Below, one piece after another: positions 7,524 through 55,695 of a stretch of DNA of 64,000 nt (the stretch's first letter is position 1; each line of letters starts with the position of its first letter). This DNA comes from a virus (Duplodnaviria; Caudoviricetes): positions 1 through 64,000 of the IMG/VR virus record IMGVR_UViG_3300031867_000008, one strand, 5' to 3'. The translations under genes were made by a program, and so were the position numbers. The notes under the pieces are model-generated. The model made no database searches. It worked only from the letters and a program-made list of their open reading frames with translations, and had not been told where the DNA came from.

Positions 7524-7844
7524 TTACACAGCCTTGATATACAGATCGTTATATAAATTATATCTGCATACTTCATTGAGGAACATTTCAACGCCGTTTT
7601 CGCCCTCAAAATGACCGCGAGCAATTCCGTTTGAAAAATATGCTATGCGCCATTTATCACCGAACACAAAACCTATATATTTATAGGTAATATGTTTAAA
7701 GTGAATAGTGATCTGAAAGCCGTTGAAAGTATCGGCTATTTCAGAAATAGCATTTTTCAAGCATTCATCGGCTGCATCGGTATCAATGAAGAATAGAGCA
7801 TCACTATTTCCACAATATCCACGAGCTTTTATAACTTTTGTCAT
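7524..7844 (-). CDS. hypothetical early protein
   Basis: ORF with AGGTG RBS. Confidence 0.65.
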   Translation of the reverse strand: MTKVIKARGYCGNSDALFFIDTDAADECLKNAISEIADTFNGFQITIHFKHITYKYIGFVFGDKWRIAYFSNGIARGHFEGENGVEMFLNEVCRYNLYNDLYIKAV

Positions 7845-7913
7845 AATATACACCTATCCTTTACTTTACAATTTGAGATCGTATTTTTTACAATCCCGAC
7901 AAAGCGAGATTTG

Positions 7914-7974
7914 CAATCCCGACAGCCCCGAAGGGCTGTTTCGTCTTAATTCTCAAAGACTCATCAGGGGATTT
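7914..7974 (-). ncRNA. type I hammerhead ribozyme
   Basis: Minus strand AATCCC-CTGATGA-GTCTT(tgagaatt)AAGAC-GAAA-CAGCCC(ttcg)GGGCTG-TC/GGGATT; perfect core and stems; cleavage predicted between 7921 and 7920. Confidence 0.92.
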
Positions 7975-8060
7975 TGCTTTACTTTCCGGCGACTTCAAGG
8001 CATTTTTCAAGATCGTACAGACCGCCGAAAAACAGTTTGATAAGTAATTTTGTAAACATT

Positions 8061-20501: not shown

Positions 20502-21516
20502 TAACAACATAGTTCATGCAAAACTTGGTGAACCTGTACTTGCAGGGTGTCTTGTGATAACAAGGCTAACGGTGGAAATCTAAAGAGATTAAATATTTAT
20601 ATCCTTTCAATGTATTTAGAAAGGATTGACATAATGGTAGAAGAAATTTGGAAAGATATAAAAGGATATGAGGGATATTATCAGATAAGCAATTTGGGAA
20701 ATGTTAAAAGTCTTGAAAGAACTGTTTATCATTCAGATGGTCGAGTTCAAGTTAGGAAAGAAAGAATAATGAGTAAGCGTGAGAGTACCGATGGTTACTA
20801 TATTGCTAAATTAAATGTTGATAAACAATCAAAATCAATAGCTATACATCGGTTAGTAGCAGAAGCCTTTATTCCAAATCCTAACAATTTTCCAGAAGTA
20901 AATCATATTGATACAAACAGAAAAAATAACAAGGTTGAAAATTTAGAATGGTGTACTCGTATTGATAATATAATGCACAGTGTAAAACTTGGACATTATA
21001 AAGGCAAATCTGGTGAAAACAATCCTAATTACGGCAATCATGCTTTATCTGAAAAATATAAGAATAATCCTGAACTATCTATGTTGAAAAATTCTCGTAA
21101 AGGAAGTCAAAATGGAAAGGCTGTTCCGATAAAAGTTATTGGTGATAATTTTGAAAAACAGTTTACCTATATTAGAGAAGCAGCTCAATATTTAATTGAT
21201 AATAAAATGGTTCGTGCTAAAACAAAAGATGTAGTTGCAAATAATATTGCAAAATGTCTAAAAGAAAATACTACATATTGTAATTTAAGTTTTAGTAGGA
21301 TATAAATAATTTTAATCTCCATGATAATACCGTGCTAAACTTGACTGGTGACAGTCTTGGAAGTGTAACGACTAAAACATACCAACTCTTTGAGTTGATG
21401 AAGTTTGTACATTTACGGTGAAAACCCGTAGGTGGAAGTGCCAAGCCCTTGTAAAATACAAGGTGAAGAGATAGTCTATTCCCCTAAAAAATATCGGGAA
21501 ACCGAGGGTATCAAAG
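20502..21516 (+). mobile_element. group I intron with HNH homing endonuclease
   Basis: P1 CATGGAT/GTTCATG with U-G at 5' splice site; P4 ACGGTG/TACCGT; R GTAACGACTA, S AAGAGATAGTCT; terminal G at 21516; splicing restores DMD-GD. Confidence 0.93.
20634..21305 (+). CDS. NUMOD4-HNH homing endonuclease
   Basis: EEIWKDIKGYEGYYQISNLGNVKS (NUMOD4); HRLVAEAFIPNP...VNHID...NN...NLEW (HNH). Confidence 0.93.
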   Translation: MVEEIWKDIKGYEGYYQISNLGNVKSLERTVYHSDGRVQVRKERIMSKRESTDGYYIAKLNVDKQSKSIAIHRLVAEAFIPNPNNFPEVNHIDTNRKNNKVENLEWCTRIDNIMHSVKLGHYKGKSGENNPNYGNHALSEKYKNNPELSMLKNSRKGSQNGKAVPIKVIGDNFEKQFTYIREAAQYLIDNKMVRAKTKDVVANNIAKCLKENTTYCNLSFSRI

Positions 21517-44197: not shown

Positions 44198-47100
44198 ATG
44201 AATTATATTATTGATGTAAAAGCGCAATTGTTAAATAATGGTGGTAATTTAAAAACTCAATATATGGCGGTCAAAAAGGATATTGAACGTCAAGTAATAA
44301 ATGTCAAGGCTGTATTAGACCCGAACGAGTTGTCTTTGAAAGCTATTCAAAAGCAATTGAACGATCAGAAATTGACTTTGAATATTGCGAACGTTGAGTT
44401 TAATCAGAGTGCGACAAGATCTTCAATAGACAAAACTGCATCGACTATATCCAACCAATTGTCAAAAGCCATGTCAACGATGAATGTTACTGGCTTTAAT
44501 AAAGGAAATTATTCAAGTTTGTTAAGGCAAATGGGTTTGGATGATGATTCTATTAAAAAAGCCACTGAGAGCGTTCAAAAACTTGGAATCACAATAACCA
44601 AAATATCGGGAACAGATTATGGTACAGATGCTAAAGGTAACAATACAATATCTGCGATAATACAAGGCGAAGATAAATTAGGTAGAGTTGTCACTCTAAG
44701 TCAAAAAATAAAAGTGGCAATGGATGAAAGCGGAAATGAGCTAATTGATTTTTCAAATAAGGTAATAAATGTTACTGACAACATTAAACAGCAAGCACAA
44801 GCACAAGAAAGGGCAAACAAGGCTTATGTTCGGCAAAAGAAGTTAATTGATGATGCTGCGGCTTCTGCAAAAGAAATGTGGGCTGCTCAGAACAGAAACA
44901 ACCCTATTAAAGATGTAACTAATAATTCTTTACCGATCAATGGAGTTTCTTCTTTATCCGCTGATTATGATAAGATAACACCTAAAACCAAAGAATTTGT
45001 TGAAGCTTATAACGAATGGGTCAAAATTATTCGTACAGCAAATGATGAACTCAAAACGCAAGGTAAAATTAGCTCAGAAACGGAACTTGCTCTTAGAAGT
45101 GCCGAAAAAGCGGCTATCACTCTTAGTCGAGATGTTACTAAGGAACGTTCTACACAAACCGATTTTAGAAGTAAAGATGTTTCTGCCGAGGTTGAAAAGG
45201 CTAAGACTCAACTTGTCACCTTTGAAAGAGAATTAGAACAAGTTGGAATGACATTAGATGACCTTAGAAATAAGAATGGACAAACATTAAGGGAAGTTCT
45301 TAACAATGTTTCTGATTCTAATAGTTTTTCTGAATACTTAAATCAGCTTGGCATTGCAAAGGCAAAACTTGAAGATGTAAAAAAGGAACAGCAATACTTA
45401 GCTAATCAAAAAGTTTTAGACACTAACTTTACAAACACAAGCGTTGAACTTGACAATCTTGTGAAAAAAATAAAAGAGTTGGATATAGATGAATCCAAAC
45501 TCACTTATTCTACTAAAGATTTGTATGAATCGTTCGACAGTATATCTGATACCAAAGGTTTGCAGGCGTTGAAGTCGATGATTTCTCAGACTACAAAAGA
45601 AGTCAACGAACAACAAAAAGCGTTTGAGGTCGAAAAGGCTAAAATCGGAGAACTTGTTAAGCTTCAAGAACAGATCACTTCTCAGCAAACTAAAATAGCT
45701 AATGCTGAATTGTCAGGCAAAAATCATAATGACATTGACATTATGAAGAATAAGCTTGAAGAATTGGAAGTAACTTATGAAAAGTTAGTTACTGAATTTG
45801 TAAGTAACCCTCTGTTTCTCAAATTAACAACTTCTGATTTAGAACCCTTGAATAATGCCAGTGGTAATAACGAATATGTAAACAACATTCTTAATGCTAA
45901 AAAGCTAGAAGAAGCATGGTATCAAGAATTATTATCAAAACGGAAAGAAATCAATTCCGAAGTACTTGAAGAACTTCGGTTAATGACGAACATTTCCCTA
46001 TACGACAAAGAAGAAGTACAACGTTTATCTGGTAGTATAATTCCTAAGCTTGTTGAGGAAGAAAGAGTTCTCCAAGAAATAGCAAAGAGTGAATTAACTG
46101 AAACTCAGTTTAAAGAAGTTGAGAATAGACTGCATAAAGATACTTTGGAGATGCTTAAAAAAAGACTTGGGTTAATGGATTCTATTCAAAAAACTCAGGC
46201 AAAAGAAGCAGATTCGATGCTTTCCGATGTTAATAAGAATACCAATAAAGCATCTAATTCATTAACAAATACTAAAGATATTGAGATTTTATCTTCTGAA
46301 TATTCTAAGCTTGTTGAGATCATAAAAAAATTTAAAAGCGAAGAAGATTTCTCTTTACTTGTTCCAAACCAAAGAGAAGCAACCGCAGCAATAGAAAATT
46401 ATAAAAATTTGATTTCAACTCTTTTAAACGCTGAAAGCAAATTTAAATCTGTTGGAAACAGTTTAGAACAGTTGGACAAACAAACTTCTGGCGGTGTGTT
46501 CTCAGCTAATTCTACCGATAAAGGTGTTATTGCTTTAAATGAAAAAATAGAAATATTGAAGAATAACTATCAAGGTTTAATGGCTGAGTTTAATGACGTT
46601 GGTGCAACAAATGAGGTTATTCAAGGATTTGACAATCTTGCAAAAGAGATTGATTCTACTTCACAAAAAGCGAATGAATTAAATAAAACTTTCAGAAGTA
46701 CCAGAACTGAAACAACTTTAATTAGTCAAAAACAATCCCTTAACAAAAGCATTGAAACTTGGTTAAAGAATAACACTAAGGCTTCGGAAGCTATGAAACA
46801 ATCCATGAAAGCCTTGCAAGTTCAAATCGAGTCTGCTGATAATCAAGGTTTAAAAAATCTGAGAAATGAGTTTAAGAGACTTAAAGATGTTGCTGATGCC
46901 ACGGGTCAGACTGGTATGAAGGCACTTGATAATTTTAAAGAAAAAATCGGAAAGTTTTCAAGTTGGTTTGGCGTATCTCAACTTATTATGGGAGCAGTCA
47001 ATGATACCAAAGAAGCTATCGTGACCCTTAAAGAAGTTGATTCAATACTGACTGAGATAAGCAAGACCTCAGATATGTCTGAGGAATCGTTGAAACGATT

Positions 47101-47647
47101 GGGAACTACCGCTTTTGAATCAGCTAATCAATATGGTGTTACTGTTCAATCTTTTTTAACTGGTGTACAAGAAATGTCAAGAGCTGGTTATCAAGATGCG
47201 GAAGGAATGGCTAATCTGTCTATTCTTGCACAAGCAGCAGGAGATATGACCGAAGAAGTTGCTGACAAATACTTGATCGCTACTGATGCAGCCTATAAGT
47301 TTAATGGCAGTATTGATGATTTAGGTAAAGTTCTCGGGGGACAGAACCAAATCACAAACCGATACGCAATTTCAATGACTGACATGGCTTCTGCTACACA
47401 AGAAGCTGCGAGTATGGCTGCTAATTATGGTGTGTCTATTGAACAATTATCAGCACTTATAACAACTGCTGTAGCTTCAACAAGACAAAGTGGTTCGGAA
47501 GTTGGTAATGCTCTTTCGACATTATTTGTAAACCTTTCTGATACAACAAACAAAGAAAGAATGAAAGCATTTGATACATTAGGTGTATCAGTTTACAAGT
47601 TCGTTGATGGTGCGCAAAAGCTGAAAACACCAATTGAATTACTCGAT
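44198..47647 (+). CDS. tail tape measure protein, exon 1 (1150 aa)
   Basis: Coiled-coil; TMP core motifs EMSRAG, AYK, RQSGSEVGNAL; breaks at TPIELLD. Confidence 0.9.
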
Positions 47648-48173
47648 TAGAATTTCGGCGCATACTCGTGACTTTAGTCGTGAGTTAGCCGAAACAATAG
47701 TTAGTGTATAGAGAAATCTGTACATAGTGGCGAGAAATCGTCCAATAAAGAAACTTAATTGCTGGAATACCGTAAAGCTATTTGTACTACAACGTAGCAC
47801 CGAAAAGGTACAAGCGTGAACGTTGCGAAAGCAGAAAGAAACAAATAGATGGCATAAGGTTAAATCCTAAGTGCTTCTACAAGAAATTGGTAATCAGCAG
47901 CGAAGCTCCGAATAGGAGAACGTTCAACGACTATCCCTCCTGAGGGGAGTACAACCAAGCGGTTGGAAATGGTTTCGCCGTAATGGGTAATGCCAACGGA
48001 TAAGATATAGTCTGTGCTTTGCCGAAAGGTAAAGAAGTTCATAAGAGAACTGCATAGGAATAGCGAACCTATGTGAACGACAACCTCTAAAACGGTTAAA
48101 TCGTAGGGTGATAGATATTAACCTATTGCTTTACATATGTTAGAAAAAAATAATAATTTTTGAAGGAAATACC

Positions 48174-48202
48174 TTGACTTTCTGAAATACATATGTTATA
48201 AT
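48174..48202 (+). promoter_or_regulatory. internal promoter for tnpA-tnpB
   Basis: TTGACT-17 nt-TATAAT with TG extension. Confidence 0.7.
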
Positions 48203-48221
48203 ATATATAGAGGTGAAAACT

Positions 48222-48623
48222 ATGAAATTAACATATGGCAGAGGTTATGTATATTCAATTCAGTATCATATTGTTTGGTGTGTAAAATACCGAAGAAAAG
48301 TTCTTGTTGGAGATGTTGAAAAGTCATTATATGAATTACTTAATAAAATAGCAGAAGAAAATGACTTTCAAATTATAGAATGTAATGGAGAAGCAGACCA
48401 TATTCATTTGCTCATAGACTGCTCACCACAACATTATATTCCTGATATGTTAAAAGCATTAAAGGGAGTTTCAGCAAGGCTACTTATGAAGCAGTATGGT
48501 GATGAATTGAAGTCAAAATTATGGGGCGGTCATTTATGGAATCCGAGTTATTATATAGCAACGGTTTCCGAGAATACCGAATCTCAAATAAGACAATACA
48601 TACAAAATCAGAAAGAGAGGTGA
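48222..48623 (+). CDS. tnpA: IS200/IS605 Y1 transposase
   Basis: YHIVWCVKYRR, DHIH (HUH), LWNPSYY, QYIQNQ catalytic Tyr. Confidence 0.95.
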   Translation: MKLTYGRGYVYSIQYHIVWCVKYRRKVLVGDVEKSLYELLNKIAEENDFQIIECNGEADHIHLLIDCSPQHYIPDMLKALKGVSARLLMKQYGDELKSKLWGGHLWNPSYYIATVSENTESQIRQYIQNQKER

Positions 48624-48627
48624 TATT

Positions 48628-49725
48628 ATGGAGAAAGCGTATAAGTTTAGGTTATATCCTAATAAGGAGCAACAGATTCTTTTGGCAAAGACTTTTGGTT
48701 GCACACGCTTTGTTTATAATTATTATCTCGACAAAAGGATAACTGCTTATAAAACTGATAAAACTACATTAAGTGCTTACGATTGTATAAGAGATTTGAC
48801 TTCTTTAAAGAAAGAGTATGAATGGCTTAAAGAACCTGATAAGTGTGCATTGCAGAATACGCTAAAAGATTTGGATAGTGCATACAAAGGATTCTTTAAG
48901 TCAAGCAAAGGCTTTCCCAAGTTTAAATCAAAGAAAACACATAGATATTCATATAGAACTTCTTATACAAATAACAATATACAATTCTTAGGTAACTCAA
49001 TCAAACTACCTAAACTTGGTAAGGTTAAAATCAGAGATAAGCAGATTCCACAGGGTAGGATTCTTAATGCTACAATATCTCAAACACCTTCTGGTAAATA
49101 CTATTGTTCATTATGTTGTACAGATGTAACAGTAGAACCTTTTGAAAAGACTGGAAGTGTAGTTGGTATTGACTTAGGTATTAAAGAATTTGTAATAACG
49201 TCTGATAATGAACACATTGAAAATCCTAAATATTTAGCAAAATCTTTAAAGAAACTCGCTCGGTTACAACGTCAACTTTCTCGAAAAACAAGAGGTAGTA
49301 ATCGTTGGAATAAGGCAAGAATAAAGGTTGCTAAGTGTCAGGAACAAATTGCAAATCAAAGAACAGATTTCTTACACAAACTATCTACAAGACTTGTAAA
49401 GGAATATGATGTTATTAGTCTTGAAGATTTAAATGTAAGCGGTATGCTTAAAAATCATAAACTTGCAAGAAGTGTTTCTGATGTGTCGTGGTCGCAGTTT
49501 ACTACTATGTTACAATACAAAGCTAATTGGTACGGCAAGGATATTATCAAAATAGATAGATTCTTTGCGAGTAGCCAGTTATGCAATGTGTGTGGCTATA
49601 AGAACACTGAGACTAAGGATTTAAGTGTTAGGTCGTGGGTGTGTCCCGTGTGTGGTACTTCTCACGACAGAGATGTTAATGCTTCAATAAATATATTGAA
49701 CGAAGGACTAAAACAAATAGTCTAA
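48628..49725 (+). CDS. tnpB: RNA-guided nuclease TnpB
   Basis: KAYKFRLYP, GIDLG, LEDL, CNVCG/CPVCG zinc finger, DRDVNA; RuvC D-E-D intact. Confidence 0.95.
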   Translation: MEKAYKFRLYPNKEQQILLAKTFGCTRFVYNYYLDKRITAYKTDKTTLSAYDCIRDLTSLKKEYEWLKEPDKCALQNTLKDLDSAYKGFFKSSKGFPKFKSKKTHRYSYRTSYTNNNIQFLGNSIKLPKLGKVKIRDKQIPQGRILNATISQTPSGKYYCSLCCTDVTVEPFEKTGSVVGIDLGIKEFVITSDNEHIENPKYLAKSLKKLARLQRQLSRKTRGSNRWNKARIKVAKCQEQIANQRTDFLHKLSTRLVKEYDVISLEDLNVSGMLKNHKLARSVSDVSWSQFTTMLQYKANWYGKDIIKIDRFFASSQLCNVCGYKNTETKDLSVRSWVCPVCGTSHDRDVNASINILNEGLKQIV

Positions 49726-49826
49726 CATATGTAAAGCGGTAGGAACTATCGTGTTAGCTCGTGGAGAAAGTAGGTTACGAAATCTATGAAACGAGAACCC
49801 TACGACTTTAGTCGTGGGAGGTTCAG

Positions 49827-50222
49827 GAATTGGCAACTGTATTCAATAGACTTGAAGAAGGCGATCCAAATAGAGCTTTACTCTTAAATGAAATTGGTGG
49901 CAAGCACCATGCGAACACACTTGCTGCTATCCTTTCCGATTGGCAGAAAATGGATTCAATAATGAATACATATTATAGCGGTTTTGGATCGGCTGAGATC
50001 GAAGCTGCCAAAAGTGCCAATAACCTACAAGGAAGTCTTAATAAACTAAACAACTCGTTCACCGATTTGGTTCAAAATGTTGTCAATACCGATTTTCTCA
50101 CAACACTTGTTCAAGGAGTTAATGACCTAACAAACGGAATAGATTTTCTTGTTGAAAAAATAGGTGTAATTCCAACAGTGTTAAGCGGAGTTGGAATAGG
50201 CGCATTAGTTAAAAACGGCGGT
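49827..50222 (+). CDS. tail tape measure protein, exon 2 (132 aa)
   Basis: ELATVF...IGGKHHANTLAAIL...SANNLQGSLNKL...LVKNGG. Confidence 0.85.
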
Positions 50223-50762
50223 AGGGTTAAATGTTTACCCTCAACAATATGCCGCCATCTGAATTGTTTCTTGCTGATAGGCAAGTTTTTATTTCAGACT
50301 TTAATGATACCTAAAACAAAGGCATACGTTAAAGTAAAACGGTAATTTTATTACCCTGTCTGTATGAGATTTGTACAAATCCAACTCATACAAGGCAGAG
50401 CCTCAATATGCGAGGAAGTTGGTACAACGTAACTACTCCCCTACTCTGGTGACAGTTTAGGGTCGTAAAAATGTTACGCTCCAATGGTTCGCAGGGATAG
50501 GACTTTTATGAATAAAAAGCCAAGCCCTCACGGTAGCGACAACAGGCGGTTATGGTTTAAGATGAAACGCTTACTATAATAATATGCGCTCGGAACGCTT
50601 CAATATAAGAAGTCAGATTTGTGGTATAGACTTATCCTATACCTTTATACAAGTGGAACTCTCACTGTAAGAGTTGATAAGAATACAGTTAACCAATCAA
50701 CAAACAGTTGACATTTCAGATTTTATCCTCTTTAGGCGGGGGGGGGGGGGGATGTCACGTAG

Positions 50763-51191
50763 TTATAATATTTGTTTTGTTATATACGTTGTTGCTACAG
50801 CTATGGCAATTTTTAGTATCGACTCACAGCTTTTGGTTTCAATATTATTACACTTCGTCTTAATCTTGTTCCATAGTTTTTGATTTTTAGCCGAATCAAT
50901 AAAAACATAACCATTTTGTGTAATTTGTCCAATAATAAAACAAAGAACATGATTGGTATTTTTGTTGTATTGATAGCGGTGGGTCACAATATACCCTGCT
51001 TCTTTGAGCTGTATTAGGGTATATTTAATTTCTTCTTGTGAATATTTTTCTAATAAAGATTCATCTGAATAAATAATTCTCCAACTCAATGGGCGAGGTA
51101 ACGCTTCTCTATCAGGTATGCAAAGATTTTTGTCAATACACAACATAATGTCTTTAATTTTTTCTTCATTCATTGAAGTAAAATTTGTCAT
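50763..51191 (-). CDS. DUF2513-like winged-helix protein (intron passenger)
   Basis: IKDIML...YSQEEIKY...QLKEAGY...ITQNGYVFID...W-x-K-x-K pattern. Confidence 0.65.
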   Translation of the reverse strand: MTNFTSMNEEKIKDIMLCIDKNLCIPDREALPRPLSWRIIYSDESLLEKYSQEEIKYTLIQLKEAGYIVTHRYQYNKNTNHVLCFIIGQITQNGYVFIDSAKNQKLWNKIKTKCNNIETKSCESILKIAIAVATTYITKQIL

Positions 51192-51231
51192 GTTATCATC
51201 CCCCTATATAAATAAACAGAAAGGAAGTATT

Positions 51232-51591
51232 ATGAATACCTTTTATGAAAATGCTAAGATAGCAACGGAAATCATGTACAATATGTTTTATTGTAACAAT
51301 TGTACTTCTGACGATATGTCTCAAATAATCAAGCTATTATCTACGTCAAATGTTGATTTGCTAAGACTTTTTATAGACGATATTTATTTGGGAGAAGTTT
51401 ATGATGAGTATGGTAATTACATGAATCAGGAAATTCTTAACAAAGGCGAAGTTGATTCTACATGGTTAAGAAAATGCTTACAGAATAAATACAAATGTTG
51501 CCAAGATGTTTTAAATGAAACAAAACAGTGTGAGATTGATGGTTTTGTTGAAAAGTCACATTCTATTTATAATAACGCTTTGAACGATTAG
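51232..51591 (+). CDS. hypothetical protein (intron passenger)
   Basis: GAAAGGA RBS before ATG at 51232. Confidence 0.6.
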   Translation: MNTFYENAKIATEIMYNMFYCNNCTSDDMSQIIKLLSTSNVDLLRLFIDDIYLGEVYDEYGNYMNQEILNKGEVDSTWLRKCLQNKYKCCQDVLNETKQCEIDGFVEKSHSIYNNALND

Positions 51592-51716
51592 AAGTGCTGT
51601 TCATTTAAAACCGCATTTAGAAAAAGTTTAGAAGCGAAACATGATTGCAGAGTGCTACTTTGTTTATTCGTATTGTTTAGTTGTTTTACTTAACATTTAA
51701 TTGGACTTATATTTTT

Positions 51717-52067
51717 TTATCTGATAAATTGTGAATAATGTGAATAAATAGCAGCAATCGTTGTTCCAAAAATTAAAACTAATATTACAATAGTTAATAC
51801 AGAAGATATGATGGATAAAAATAAACAATAGTCTCCAACACATTTCCTATACCAATCTTCTTTTGTAAAAAGAATGACAAAAGCTAATAATCCTACGGGA
51901 GGAAAAAGAAAACTAATAATGTACAATATTTTGTAATCTTTTTTGGATTTCTTAAACGCTTGGTTAGAATCAAGCAAGTCATTTACATAACACCCGCAAC
52001 AAGGACAAACGTAAGCATTTTCGGATAATGTTTCATAACCACATTCAGGACAATCAATTAAAGCCAT
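51717..52067 (-). CDS. zinc-ribbon membrane protein (intron passenger)
   Basis: MALIDCPECG...CPCCG then two hydrophobic helices; AGGGG RBS. Confidence 0.75.
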   Translation of the reverse strand: MALIDCPECGYETLSENAYVCPCCGCYVNDLLDSNQAFKKSKKDYKILYIISFLFPPVGLLAFVILFTKEDWYRKCVGDYCLFLSIISSVLTIVILVLIFGTTIAAIYSHYSQFIR

Positions 52068-52097
52068 ACAACAATCCCCTTTCAATTGTTTTATTTT

Positions 52098-52126
52098 ATT
52101 ATATCACATATTGGCTTCAAAGTCAA
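52098..52126 (-). promoter_or_regulatory. leftward promoter for passenger gene, inside the intron
   Basis: TTGACT-17 nt-TATAAT with TG extension. Confidence 0.7.
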
Positions 52127-52173
52127 GCGTTAGAAAAATCTATTTATAACTTTTCCACGAAGTTTATAGTTTG

Positions 52174-55100
52174 ATATTAGCTGATATAGGTTTTTCTTCT
52201 AAGGTATTAAAAGAAATACCCAAGGAATTTAAAAATTCCAGTGAATACGTTGATATTCTTGCAAATTCTGTAAAAGCATTGACTGCTCGTCAGCAAGCGT
52301 TAGTTTTATCAAGTAATGGAGTTTCTGATGTGATGATTAGAGAAGTGTTGGAAACTAATGAGGTCACTAAGTCAGAGATAGATGCTATTATGGCTAAACG
52401 TGCAATGACAGCCACTCAGGCTTCTCTAACCAAAAGTCAATTGGCAGAAATCATAACTGTTCAAACTGGAAATGCAGAAAAAACTACTGCTATTATGACA
52501 GAACTTGGATTAGCGGAGGCAAAAAATGAAGATGTGATAGCAACTGAAATGTTATCTGCCTCAACAGTTAAGGCTGCTTCGGCACAACAAGGATTAAATG
52601 CTGAACAAACACAAGCGATGTTACTAAACATGGGTTTGGCAAAAAAAACTGACAAAATATCAAATTTCTTTAGTGGTTTGGCGACAACTATTAGAGATGG
52701 AGCAAAGGCTTTGTTTAGTTTTGTTAAGGCACATCCTGTTGCAATAGCTGCTACCGCAGCAATAGCTGTATCGGTAGGTGTAATATCACATCAGATAAAA
52801 GAAAATGAGCAACAAATAAAACAAGCCATTGAAACCGCAGAAGAATTAAAAGAATCCGTACATACTGTTGACGAGTATGTTTCTAAAATAAAAGACCTTC
52901 GAGAGTCTTTAGATTCGGGGAGCAATAGTCTCGATGAGCAGAAAAATATTCGTGCTGAATTATTGTCCATACAAGAGGAAATGATCGGCAAGTATGGAGA
53001 TGAAATCAGACAACTTGATCTGATGACCGATTCGGTAATCAATTTAGAAAATGCTATCGAAGGATATTCTGCGAGAAAAGAAGCACAGGACTGGCTTATA
53101 AATAATGCCGAAGCGGTTGAAAAGGCTGATAATACAGTTCAGGCGTTTGGTGTTGATTATATTGACAATCTCAAAAATGAAATCGATGAAATTAAAGCGT
53201 TAAAAACACAATCTGTTGATGATTTTAATGTTGCTGTGTGGAATCTTGGAGTTCAATTAGGAAAAGATTTTTCTGAATATATTGTAAAAACAAAAGATGA
53301 AATAAAAACAAAACAAGATGAGTTAATAGATACATTGCAGACTAATTATAATGCCTTGACAGGAGAAAACTCAGGGTTAAAACTGATTCCTGAATGGATG
53401 GAGGAAGGCTCTAATTATTGGGCGAATCTTCTTGGTGATATGGATATTTTAGGTTCAGTTGACGAGGATATAGAAATATTTAAACAATCGGGTTATTACA
53501 AACTCATTACCGATATGCCTGAAATGTATGACCGATTAACAAATGCTGTTAAGAATTATAATGATGCCGTAACAAGCGGTGATACTTCCAAACAAAGAAC
53601 TGCCTTAGAAGAACTTGAAAATATATTCAATGATTCTAAGAACATTGATGATAATGCTATAAAATGGTACATTCAAAATGAACTGTCAAGCTATATAAAT
53701 GTAGCTGATAAATTAGACGAGGAATTGCAACAGCGACTTGCTCGTTTTAATACTTCTCTTAGCGTAGCGCAGTCTTTACATAAAAGAGACGAATATGGTG
53801 CTGGATTGTTCAAACTTAGCGAGGATGAACAAGGCGGGTATACATTTAAGCCCAATGACAGTTTTGTTGAAATTATTCCGAAACTTAATGACAACGAATT
53901 TGAAACATTGTTAAAGCTTGTACAAGGTGAAATCGGAGAAAATATTGATTGGTTGACTTATCAACCTGAATCTTTAACTTCTCTCGTCAAAGCAATGGCT
54001 TCGACTGCTGACGGTTTCGATGTTGCTTCGTGGTATGAAAGTAATGAGGTTAAAGACATCACTGATTCTTTGGGTAAATTGCAATCTGCTTATGCTTCGT
54101 TAGAAAAAGGCGATTCTATTGATTTGGACGATCTGATTGAAAGTTATCCCGAATTAGCAAAGTATACTGATAATGTTGAAGAACTCAAAAAACATATTCA
54201 AGAACTTGCTAATTCAAAAGTCACACCCTTGATTGAAAACCTACAATCTTTAATAAACGGTGCTATTGCGAATGGTGATAACGAAACAGCAAAAGTGATA
54301 CAGAATATCATTGATTTACTTTATAATGAAGCTGACGTAACAGCCAAAGTTAAAGACGAATCCTCTAAAACTAACGATGTTTATAAGGCACAAAAAGAAA
54401 CTCTTAAACAACAATTGTCTTATATCAAAAACAACATCAATAAAGAAGAAGAAAGAAAAGAAGCTGCACAGGAAACTCTTGACACTCTTGAAAAGCAAAA
54501 AGACAGTTTGGAGAAAACTCTTGACAAATATGACACGGCAGTAAGCACTATCACAAGCTACATTGATGAGCAAATTAACTCTCTCGAAGAACAGAAAACG
54601 GCAATCGAGGACACTTATTCGCAACAGATTGAGGCTCTTGAAAGTGAAGCCGAAGAACGTGAAAAAGTCAACGACTTGATTGAAAAACAAATCGCTCTTG
54701 AAAAGGCGAAAGAAACACAAGTCAGAGTATACGATAAAGAACGCGGCGGTTTCAGAATAGAAACTGATAAATCTGTTGTTGCACAAGCACAGAAGGAATA
54801 TGATGATGCTGTAAGAGAATCCGAAATTGATCGTCTTGAAAAAGAACGTGATAACGCCCTCAAACCTTACGATGATGAAATCAAGTCATTAGAGAGCTAT
54901 AAAAACTCTTGGGAGCAGGCGGCTAAATCGTATCAGAAAATGCAAGATGAAATGACTACTGCGGCTGTCTTTGGTTCTGATTGGCGAAGCATGGCTATAT
55001 CGCAAGACACTAACGCTATTCAAGGATTTGTCGATAATTATTCTGCCACAGCTAATAGACTTCATAATATTGTCGAACCTCAAATCGAACAGACTAAAAA

Positions 55101-55695
55101 TGAAATTGATACTATTGATAAGCAAATTTCTAAATGGAAAGAACTTCAAACTCAACAGCAATCGTACCTTGACTTTTTCAAAAATTATGGTACACAAATG
55201 TCTCAGGCTATTGGAGAACAAGCGAAAGCTGTTAAAGACTTTGTAAATGCTATAAACGGAATTGCTAAGAGTAATGGTATTGTTGCAGATAAGATTTGGG
55301 ACTTGGTGCAGAAATTTTACGTTCCAGATTATATTCCTGCGTTCGCCAATGGTGGTGTAAGCAGTTCAACAGGACTTGCTATGCTTCACGGAACAAAGCA
55401 GAAATCAGAAGTGACTTTTAACGCAGAAGATGCTAAGAAACTTTATGATATGATACACGGCAGAAGTTCCGCACAGCTAACTAACACCGTTGCAAGGAAT
55501 ATTGTGGATTCTGCGATTCAAACCACAAGAGAAAATGCAAGCATTGTAAATAATAATCGTCCAACAAACAACGAATATACTTGGGTTATAAACGAGCCTA
55601 AGTTTAGTAGTGCTGATGATTACAGGGCGTTCTCTGAACACATGGACAGATATGTAAGAGAAGCCAACATGAATCGTTTGGTTGGTAAGAAATAA
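52174..55695 (+). CDS. tail tape measure protein, exon 3 (1173 aa; spliced product about 2455 aa)
   Basis: Long coiled coil; C-terminal FANGG...AMLHGT...E motif of tape-measure ends. Confidence 0.88.
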   Translation: MLADIGFSSKVLKEIPKEFKNSSEYVDILANSVKALTARQQALVLSSNGVSDVMIREVLETNEVTKSEIDAIMAKRAMTATQASLTKSQLAEIITVQTGNAEKTTAIMTELGLAEAKNEDVIATEMLSASTVKAASAQQGLNAEQTQAMLLNMGLAKKTDKISNFFSGLATTIRDGAKALFSFVKAHPVAIAATAAIAVSVGVISHQIKENEQQIKQAIETAEELKESVHTVDEYVSKIKDLRESLDSGSNSLDEQKNIRAELLSIQEEMIGKYGDEIRQLDLMTDSVINLENAIEGYSARKEAQDWLINNAEAVEKADNTVQAFGVDYIDNLKNEIDEIKALKTQSVDDFNVAVWNLGVQLGKDFSEYIVKTKDEIKTKQDELIDTLQTNYNALTGENSGLKLIPEWMEEGSNYWANLLGDMDILGSVDEDIEIFKQSGYYKLITDMPEMYDRLTNAVKNYNDAVTSGDTSKQRTALEELENIFNDSKNIDDNAIKWYIQNELSSYINVADKLDEELQQRLARFNTSLSVAQSLHKRDEYGAGLFKLSEDEQGGYTFKPNDSFVEIIPKLNDNEFETLLKLVQGEIGENIDWLTYQPESLTSLVKAMASTADGFDVASWYESNEVKDITDSLGKLQSAYASLEKGDSIDLDDLIESYPELAKYTDNVEELKKHIQELANSKVTPLIENLQSLINGAIANGDNETAKVIQNIIDLLYNEADVTAKVKDESSKTNDVYKAQKETLKQQLSYIKNNINKEEERKEAAQETLDTLEKQKDSLEKTLDKYDTAVSTITSYIDEQINSLEEQKTAIEDTYSQQIEALESEAEEREKVNDLIEKQIALEKAKETQVRVYDKERGGFRIETDKSVVAQAQKEYDDAVRESEIDRLEKERDNALKPYDDEIKSLESYKNSWEQAAKSYQKMQDEMTTAAVFGSDWRSMAISQDTNAIQGFVDNYSATANRLHNIVEPQIEQTKNEIDTIDKQISKWKELQTQQQSYLDFFKNYGTQMSQAIGEQAKAVKDFVNAINGIAKSNGIVADKIWDLVQKFYVPDYIPAFANGGVSSSTGLAMLHGTKQKSEVTFNAEDAKKLYDMIHGRSSAQLTNTVARNIVDSAIQTTRENASIVNNNRPTNNEYTWVINEPKFSSADDYRAFSEHMDRYVREANMNRLVGKK

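Follow-up and report, generated by a model that had tools for sequence, protein, structure and literature searches.

Group I introns have been described in the tape-measure genes of phages. In Bacillus cereus-group prophages, the introns TMP-IVS1-3 occupy three sites in this gene and belong to subgroup IA1 or IA2 (Tourasse and Kolsto, 2008; PMC2504315). Some of them have no complete endonuclease gene, and their P1 helix is adapted to a conserved exon site (PMC2504315). In this study, a 64,000-nt stretch of phage DNA (referred to as the window; positions 1 to 64,000 of IMG/VR record IMGVR_UViG_3300031867_000008, Duplodnaviria; Caudoviricetes) was analyzed, in which a tape-measure gene is interrupted at 50223..52173 (+ strand). 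The phage record is a complete genome of 140,956 bp with terminal repeats. Like TMP-IVS1-3, the 1951-nt element lies in a phage tape-measure gene, has no recognizable endonuclease gene and carries a P1 adapted to a conserved exon site; unlike them, it sits at another position in the gene. Based on covariation within its family, covariation of P1 with the exon and comparison of 3' ends, the element is very probably a group I intron that would be removed from the late mRNA to give a tape-measure protein of 2455 aa (probability about 0.82).

The tape-measure gene of this phage is in three pieces, at 44198-47647, 49830-50222 and 52174-55695. Exon 2 (49830..50222, +) encodes 131 aa and has K-N-G-G at its C-terminus; exon 3 (52174..55695, +) begins with ATATT. 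It had been noticed in a first-pass annotation, made by a model without database searches, that the frame breaks off after KNGG and resumes 1951 nt later. The break does fall within one gene. When 50222 is joined to 52174 the frame is kept in phase 0 (KNGG|ILADIG), giving the 2455 aa in total. The PHROG 4211 tape-measure profile is continuous over the first two pieces, with its positions 162-816 in exon 1 and 831-943 in exon 2. The tape-measure protein of Enterocloster phage PMBT24 (1508 aa, uninterrupted) aligns with exons 1-2 and continues for 12 residues beyond the junction, and the C-terminal part of exon 3 matches the same protein at 1e-22. In Bacillus phage FADO no interruption was seen at the point equivalent to the junction. 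A tblastn search of phages with the first 400 aa of exon 3 gave no match. In contigs related to the window, YomW/YomU-type SPbeta tail genes adjoin the tape-measure genes.

The core helices P3-P8, including the P3/P7 pseudoknot, follow the canonical group I order, and all features of the fold lie on the + strand. P1 is formed by the last six bases of exon 2 (GGCGGT, 50217-22) and an intron guide (GCCGCC, 50251-56), with a U50222.G50251 wobble at the splice site. The guide ends a P1-P10 segment (50223..50256) that also holds a hairpin, AGGGT/ACCCT (50223-27/50237-41), and the AATAT (50246-50) that pairs with the first five bases of exon 3 (ATATT, 52174-78) as P10. Minimum free energy (MFE) folding recovers P1 and P2 and places three hairpins in the P2 region (50257..50399), the last of which (50355-50398) is common to two related loci, L001 and L057. 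The next segment (50400..50527) carries the 5' strand of P3 and the P4-P6 domain, with a P5a/b/c extension, a GUGA tetraloop (50449-52) and an A-rich strand (50463-72). The pairings here are P3 (50400-03/50544-47), P4 (50409-14/50488-93), P5 (50418-22/50481-85), P5a (50428-33/50473-78) and P6 (50494-96/50525-27). J6/7 (UCA), the 5' strand of P7 and J7/3 (ACAAC) follow at 50528..50543. This P7 strand reads C50531-[G50532]-G50533-[U50534]-A50535-G-C-G50538, with bulged bases in brackets; C50531, G50533 and A50535-G50538 are paired with CGCTCG at 50587-92. The segment 50544..50596 runs from the 3' strand of P3 to the 5' strand of P9.0 and contains P8 (50550-56/50573-79) with a conserved loop, J8/7 (TAATATG) and GAAC (50593-96), whose P9.0 partner GTTT (52169-72) adjoins the terminal G52173. 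The P9 hairpins fall in 50597..50689, together with one strand (the 5' one, GTGGAA, 50653-58) of a helix closing a cargo loop. The intron 3' end (52153..52173) supplies the second strand of the closing helix (TTCCAC, 52153-58), the GTTT of P9.0 and the last intron base, G52173.

Related sequences were collected by four pattern scans, two with the P7 sequence and two anchored on flanking elements (viral contigs; metagenome contigs). The first wide pattern, TCACNGTAGCGACAAC, gave mainly chance matches in genome contigs, and a second motif was used as a filter. The scans yielded at least 109 distinct sequences from IMG/VR, metagenomes and metagenome-assembled genomes (MAGs) of Clostridia. Two alignments were used: a core alignment of 42 related sequences (A1) and a P7 alignment of 20 sequences picked to span the P7 variants (A2). 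In A1, 92.6% of cells in the core helices were paired, compared with 32-42% with slid partners. Double-sided changes were detected in 35 of 49 pairs, and none of 500 shuffles reached the observed covariation score. P3 and P4 were 100% paired, with changes on both sides at 4/4 and 4/6 pairs, respectively; P8 was also 100% paired, six of its seven pairs covarying, and P5, P5a, P5b and P5c all covary. Covariation was also seen in the hairpin of the P1 loop (AGGGT/ACCCT vs. AGGAC/GTCCT) and, with L001 and L057, in the P9 hairpins. All group I helices listed in the first-pass annotation are present and lie where it had placed them; the long-range GTGGAA/TTCCAC helix that it had proposed to close a 1.5-kb loop is present too, with TTGGA/TCCAA as its equivalent in L001. 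The element could instead be read as a cassette of accessory genes between two adjacent tail genes, its complementarities having arisen by chance. Such a cassette would account for the three open reading frames (ORFs) on both strands and for a promoter-like site inside the element, but the slid-partner and shuffle controls exclude chance pairing. The 5' 470 nt, moreover, contain no ORF of at least 40 aa lying entirely within the intron, and are conserved as structure while the cargo content differs between relatives. We find a cassette without an intron scarcely credible. The P8 loop (50557-50572) is near-invariant in the family, with the sequence (A/G)(U/G)AUG(A/C)AACG(A/C)UG and one internal pair that covaries (U-A or G-C); the GNRA loop of P5c may dock there.

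Nearly all of the relatives checked are inserted after the same K-N-x-G codon of the tape-measure gene, downstream of the PF10145 domain. Among longer proteins, 12 homologues of exon 2 were found, and nearly all of them continue from exon-1-like into exon-2-like sequence. Homologues P0001-P0011 end 2-21 unconserved residues past K-N-x-G, which looks like read-through into an intron. In L001, the contig of P0001, a segment with 74% identity to window 50337-50689 was found directly after the K-N-x-G codon. A search of viral contigs for related loci with exon 2 gave no confirmed match. By tblastn with exon 2, the K-N-x-G end was located in over 25 loci, at a distance of 200-280 nt on the 5' side of the P7 motif; the tape-measure proteins of these loci are only 25-50% identical. 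Intron length is about 0.7-4 kb across the relatives, and the conserved parts are the 5' 470 nt and the last ~25 nt. No relative was detected by blastn of the intron against INPHARED phages and PLSDB plasmids. The hosts named for the MAG matches are Clostridia, Lachnospiraceae, Ruminococcus and Acetatifactor. Phages and prophages of gut Clostridia carry a large family of such introns, to which the window intron belongs.

Two other arrangements were observed at the K-N-x-G site. In L008 (10400-13500) a different intervening sequence occupies it, in which the guide is still of the ATAT-GCC design and the P5 extension is similar; the P6-P8 region differs, and the insert carries a 555-aa ORF with a NUMOD domain. 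In L002 (10754-17047), over 6 kb of unrelated genes (GmrSD_N, Bro-N/ANT, PemK) lie after the K-N-x-G site, and the contig ends before exon 3.

The P1 guide tracks the exon codon in at least eight combinations. The pair GGCGGT/GCCGCC is found in the window and in L057; the others are ATCGGT/GCCGAT, GTCGGT/GCCGAC, GTTGGT/GCCAAC, GATGGT/GCCATC, GCTGGT/GCCAGC, TTCGGT/GCCGAA and GTCGGC/ACCGAC. In three loci (L192, L220, L255) the exon ends in GGC rather than GGT and the guide has A rather than G, so that C.A stands in place of U.G, a double change by which the wobble geometry is kept. P9.0 covaries as well (GAAC/GTTT, GAAC/GTTC, ATAC/GTAT, GTAC/GTAC). A terminal intron G and a 3' exon starting with ATATT were seen in most relatives with a located 3' end; the variant starts are ATGTT, with pairing kept via G.U, and ACATT, with one mismatch. 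A covariation check on split tape-measure genes ending in KNxG had been proposed from the first reading of the sequence. In these genes P1 and P7 covary, and P10 (AAUAU/AUAUU) is kept, complementary yet nearly invariant.

This pattern fits a guide that co-evolved in place with its exon, and long residence at the site rather than frequent homing, because the guide appears to have been adjusted stepwise to the exon codon and no tape-measure gene with a ligated junction was found. In the scan for the ligated-exon sequence, AAAAAYNNYGGTATATTYAA, none of 71 matches lay in a tape-measure gene, a weak result as intron-free genes may differ there. The correlation of exon and intron distances, computed to tell vertical from horizontal spread, was rho 0.27, a value reached in 65 of 2000 permutations, for 13 loci only.

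The canonical group I core, as in the introns of Tetrahymena, Azoarcus and Twort, shares with the window intron the U.G of P1, P10, P9.0, the terminal G, the order of P3-P8 and the P3/P7 pseudoknot. Also shared are the J6/7-P7 string UCA-C-N-G, which is the same in Tetrahymena, the G:C pair with A:U after it, and one bulged base on the 5' side of the binding G. Unlike the canonical core, the window intron has an extra bulge 3' of the binding G, the remainder of its P7 is AGCG/CGCU instead of ACU(A)/(U)AGU, and its J8/7 is AAUAUG (AAGAUA in Tetrahymena); the 5' bulge of P7 can be any base in the family. The first-pass annotation had reported a departure of P7 from GACUA/UAGUC with an extra bulged base. 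The pairing that it proposed is correct, since P7 is 100% paired in A2, with three covarying pairs. These are 50531-50592 (CG, GC, UA, AU), 50536-50589 (GC, GU, CG) and 50537-50588 (CG, UA). The other three pairs are invariant, 50533-50591 and 50538-50587 always being GC and 50535-50590 always AU; the 50533-50591 and 50535-50590 pairs are likewise unchanged in all P7 variants parsed from the 109 sequences. In the 109 distinct sequences listed, which were anchored outside P7, the 5' strand of P7 has eight bases in about 84, the binding G being followed by an extra base (50534); this base is U in about 70 sequences, A in 7 and C in 3. A seven-base strand lacking it was seen in about 22, among them G[A]GACUG/CAGUCC, an ordinary GACU/AGUC helix; P1, P10 and the insertion site are unchanged in close relatives of this class. 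In the eight-base class the base bulged on the 5' side (50532) is U in 38, A in 33, C in 6 and G in 1 (the window); in the seven-base class it is always A. J6/7 is invariably UCA in the sequences examined, and J7/3 is the 5-nt ACAAC in nearly all members, with GCAAC or ACAAT in a few.

According to a published survey, the base bulged at the P7 guanosine site is either A or C, a bulged C accompanies an A:U or U:A first pair, and a bulged U is highly unusual among more than 22,000 introns (PMC3511172). In the tape-measure intron family the rule for a bulged C is largely obeyed, and the restriction to A or C is not. A lineage-specific breach of the same restriction, including a bulged U, is known for the Physarum L2449 intron variants (PMC3511172). 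Those are nuclear rDNA introns without a second bulge, whereas the family described here consists of phage introns with an extra base across the G. A double-bulged P7 may already be present in some described subgroup. The comparison of relatives shows U50534 to be a genuine extra bulge, the identity of which is not fixed and which the family can do without.

These departures could reflect a functional remodelling of the guanosine pocket, such that guanosine affinity or kinetics are changed, a protein helper is needed, or another nucleophile is used (a different nucleotide, or hydrolysis). The high frequency of the extra base, the range of 5' bulges in the extra-base class, the rarity of a bulged U among known introns and the J8/7 of the window are all in line with such a change. 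However, no variation was seen in G50533-C50591, A50535-U50590, J6/7 UCA or the terminal G among the sequences examined. The extra base, for its part, differs between members and is missing from close relatives with the same P1, P10 and insertion site, which is the pattern expected of a flipped-out, tolerated bulge. We consider remodelling unlikely. It is doubtful, too, that the binding G:C, isolated between two single-base bulges, forms a natural active-site variant with distinct guanosine affinity, kinetics or helper dependence. Because the pocket residues are all kept (J6/7 UCA, the first pair, G:C, A:U and the terminal G), P7 is read as a genuine departure from the common pattern, yet a tolerated variant that would use the normal guanosine mechanism. 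The word "rewired," applied to P7 in the first-pass annotation, is thus too strong: the binding G:C, the A:U below it and the terminal G do not vary, and an ordinary helix occurs within the same family. Nothing was found to support its suggestion of altered cofactor use.

The large cargo insertion and the unusual P7 might also point to a splicing-dead relic, the tape-measure protein then being made as separate pieces or the gene being non-functional. One relative, L119, has a shortened P5 extension and, at the splice site, U-A in place of U.G; the intron at that locus may be decaying. Against a relic, compensatory changes were found in every helix, which indicates continuing selection for the fold. 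They extend to the P7 class with the extra bulge, where the outer pairs are CG, UA, AU or GC and the third pair has changed from CG to UA in L461. In the window the phase-0 frames are intact over the whole protein and the genome is complete. A relic is accordingly quite improbable.

From the features, conservation and covariation described above, we infer catalysis, the cofactor and splicing in vivo, by a mechanism that would be the standard one. The GCCGCC guide would pair with the exon end GGCGGU to form P1, setting the U.G wobble at the splice site. Free guanosine, bound at G50533-C50591 of P7, would attack after U50222. AAUAU (50246-50) would then pair with the start of exon 3 as P10, and P9.0 (GAAC/GUUU) would bring G52173 into the same pocket. 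Ligation of the exons would be the last step. Accessory genes, mostly antisense, lie in the long P9 loop closed by GUGGAA/UUCCAC. Several points weigh against reading the element as an active group I intron. Rfam model RF00028 gives no match to it, and an isolated G:C pair between two bulges is an unusual guanosine site. At odds with the published A/C rule (PMC3511172), the 5' bulge of the window intron is G, and roughly one third of the family has U there. Folding could suffer from a loop of 1.5 kb with antisense transcription. In addition, the phage is known only from a metagenome.

RF00028 failed to match the window intron at the gathering threshold and even at E<=10, and gave no match in six relatives (L001, L002, L006, L258, L264, L301). 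The first-pass annotation had expected that standard models might miss this divergent ribozyme. The expectation held, but P7 is not the cause of the miss: relatives with an ordinary P7 (L301, L264) are missed as well, so the overall divergence of the family is responsible. Part of this divergence lies in a P5abc-like extension, the lack of P7.1/P7.2 and long insertions. It has been reported in a 2025 study of Bastillevirinae introns that Rfam and GISSD models miss variants among phage introns (PMC11878797).

Three assignments to described elements were considered and rejected. Subgroup IA2 does not apply because the 5-nt J7/3 leaves no P7.1/P7.2 between P7 and P3'. The element is not an IStron, as the internal ORFs of 50223-52173 are not IS200/IS605 tnpA/tnpB. 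Nor is it the tape-measure intron of pBWB404, which sits further upstream in the PF10145-like part of the gene, at ...AQIFG; no similarity between the two introns was found by blastn. The T4 td-type IA2 introns and an IStron core at 47700-48034 of the window are likewise group I elements in a phage gene, the IStron core even in the same gene. IA2 introns have P7.1/P7.2 and GACUA/UAGUC, and the IStron core is found by Rfam, while none of this is true of the window intron.

The IStron fills the first gap in the tape-measure gene (47648-49850). Its group I core (Rfam, 73.8 bits) has a td-like P7.1 and GACUA/UAGUC, and is followed by an IS200-type TnpA (48213-48623) and a TnpB (48628-49725). Homologues are continuous over the IStron junction, from exon 1 residue 1149 to exon 2 residue 1. 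At approximately residue 1050 of window exon 1, the tape-measure gene of L001 has an additional break of about 270 nt (7734-8001), a possible third intron site, in which Rfam found no match. The window also contains an RNA-polymerase intron (20502-21516), with GACTA at 21370 and TAGTC at 21472, which is not reported by Rfam at the gathering threshold.

Three ORFs are carried in the cargo loop of the window intron. The first (50763..51191, -, 142 aa) is antisense to the intron and belongs to DUF2513 (Pfam PF10711 at 1.5e-14). The second (51232..51591, +, 119 aa) has no family match. The third (51717..52085, -, 122 aa) is again antisense and encodes a Cys-rich N-terminus followed by a hydrophobic segment. 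A promoter-like site, TTGACT-17-TATAAT with a TG (11/12 matches), was observed at 52126-52098 on the - strand, 5' of the Cys-rich ORF. Because this near-consensus site lies just 5' of the antisense ORF, it suggests that the cargo may be transcribed independently, in the direction opposite to the tail operon. Just past the end of the antisense DUF2513 ORF, window 50736-50752 is a run of about 14 G with one C interruption, which could be a slippage-prone tract or an assembly artefact.

No homing endonuclease family (LAGLIDADG, GIY-YIG, HNH, His-Cys, PD-(D/E)XK or similar) was detected in the three ORFs by Pfam, PHROGs, NCBIfam or PADLOC, in agreement with the first-pass annotation, and no nuclease family was found in 19 cargo ORFs of 12 relatives. 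The NUMOD ORF is present only in L008, the divergent intron at the same site. The cargo of the relatives (L006, L010, L030, L057, L088, L192, L256, L258) is mostly antisense, with recurrent small zinc-ribbon proteins that have hydrophobic segments and with DUF2513-like proteins. Antisense zinc-ribbon ORFs similar to the Cys-rich ORF occur in L006, L030, L088 and L258, and DUF2513-like ORFs recur in L057, L030 and L192. The L010 intron carries a ToxN-type toxin ORF on the sense strand (Pfam, 1.4e-34).

The element is not a new kind of ribozyme. It belongs to a large family that is unmodelled by Rfam and specific to one tape-measure site. The family is common in gut phages yet invisible to the standard Rfam model, so gene callers report many tape-measure genes as truncated, as in P0001-P0011 with their read-through ends; a family-specific covariance model would repair these annotations. 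The P7 series, with an extra U, A or C or none and with any base at the 5' bulge, amounts to a naturally occurring mutational scan of the guanosine site of group I introns. With its co-evolved guide, no endonuclease and no intron-free junction of the form searched for, the family illustrates how an intron may be kept over the long term in an essential structural gene. The variable and mostly antisense cargo, including one ToxN, suggests that the intron loop is a safe harbour for accessory genes.

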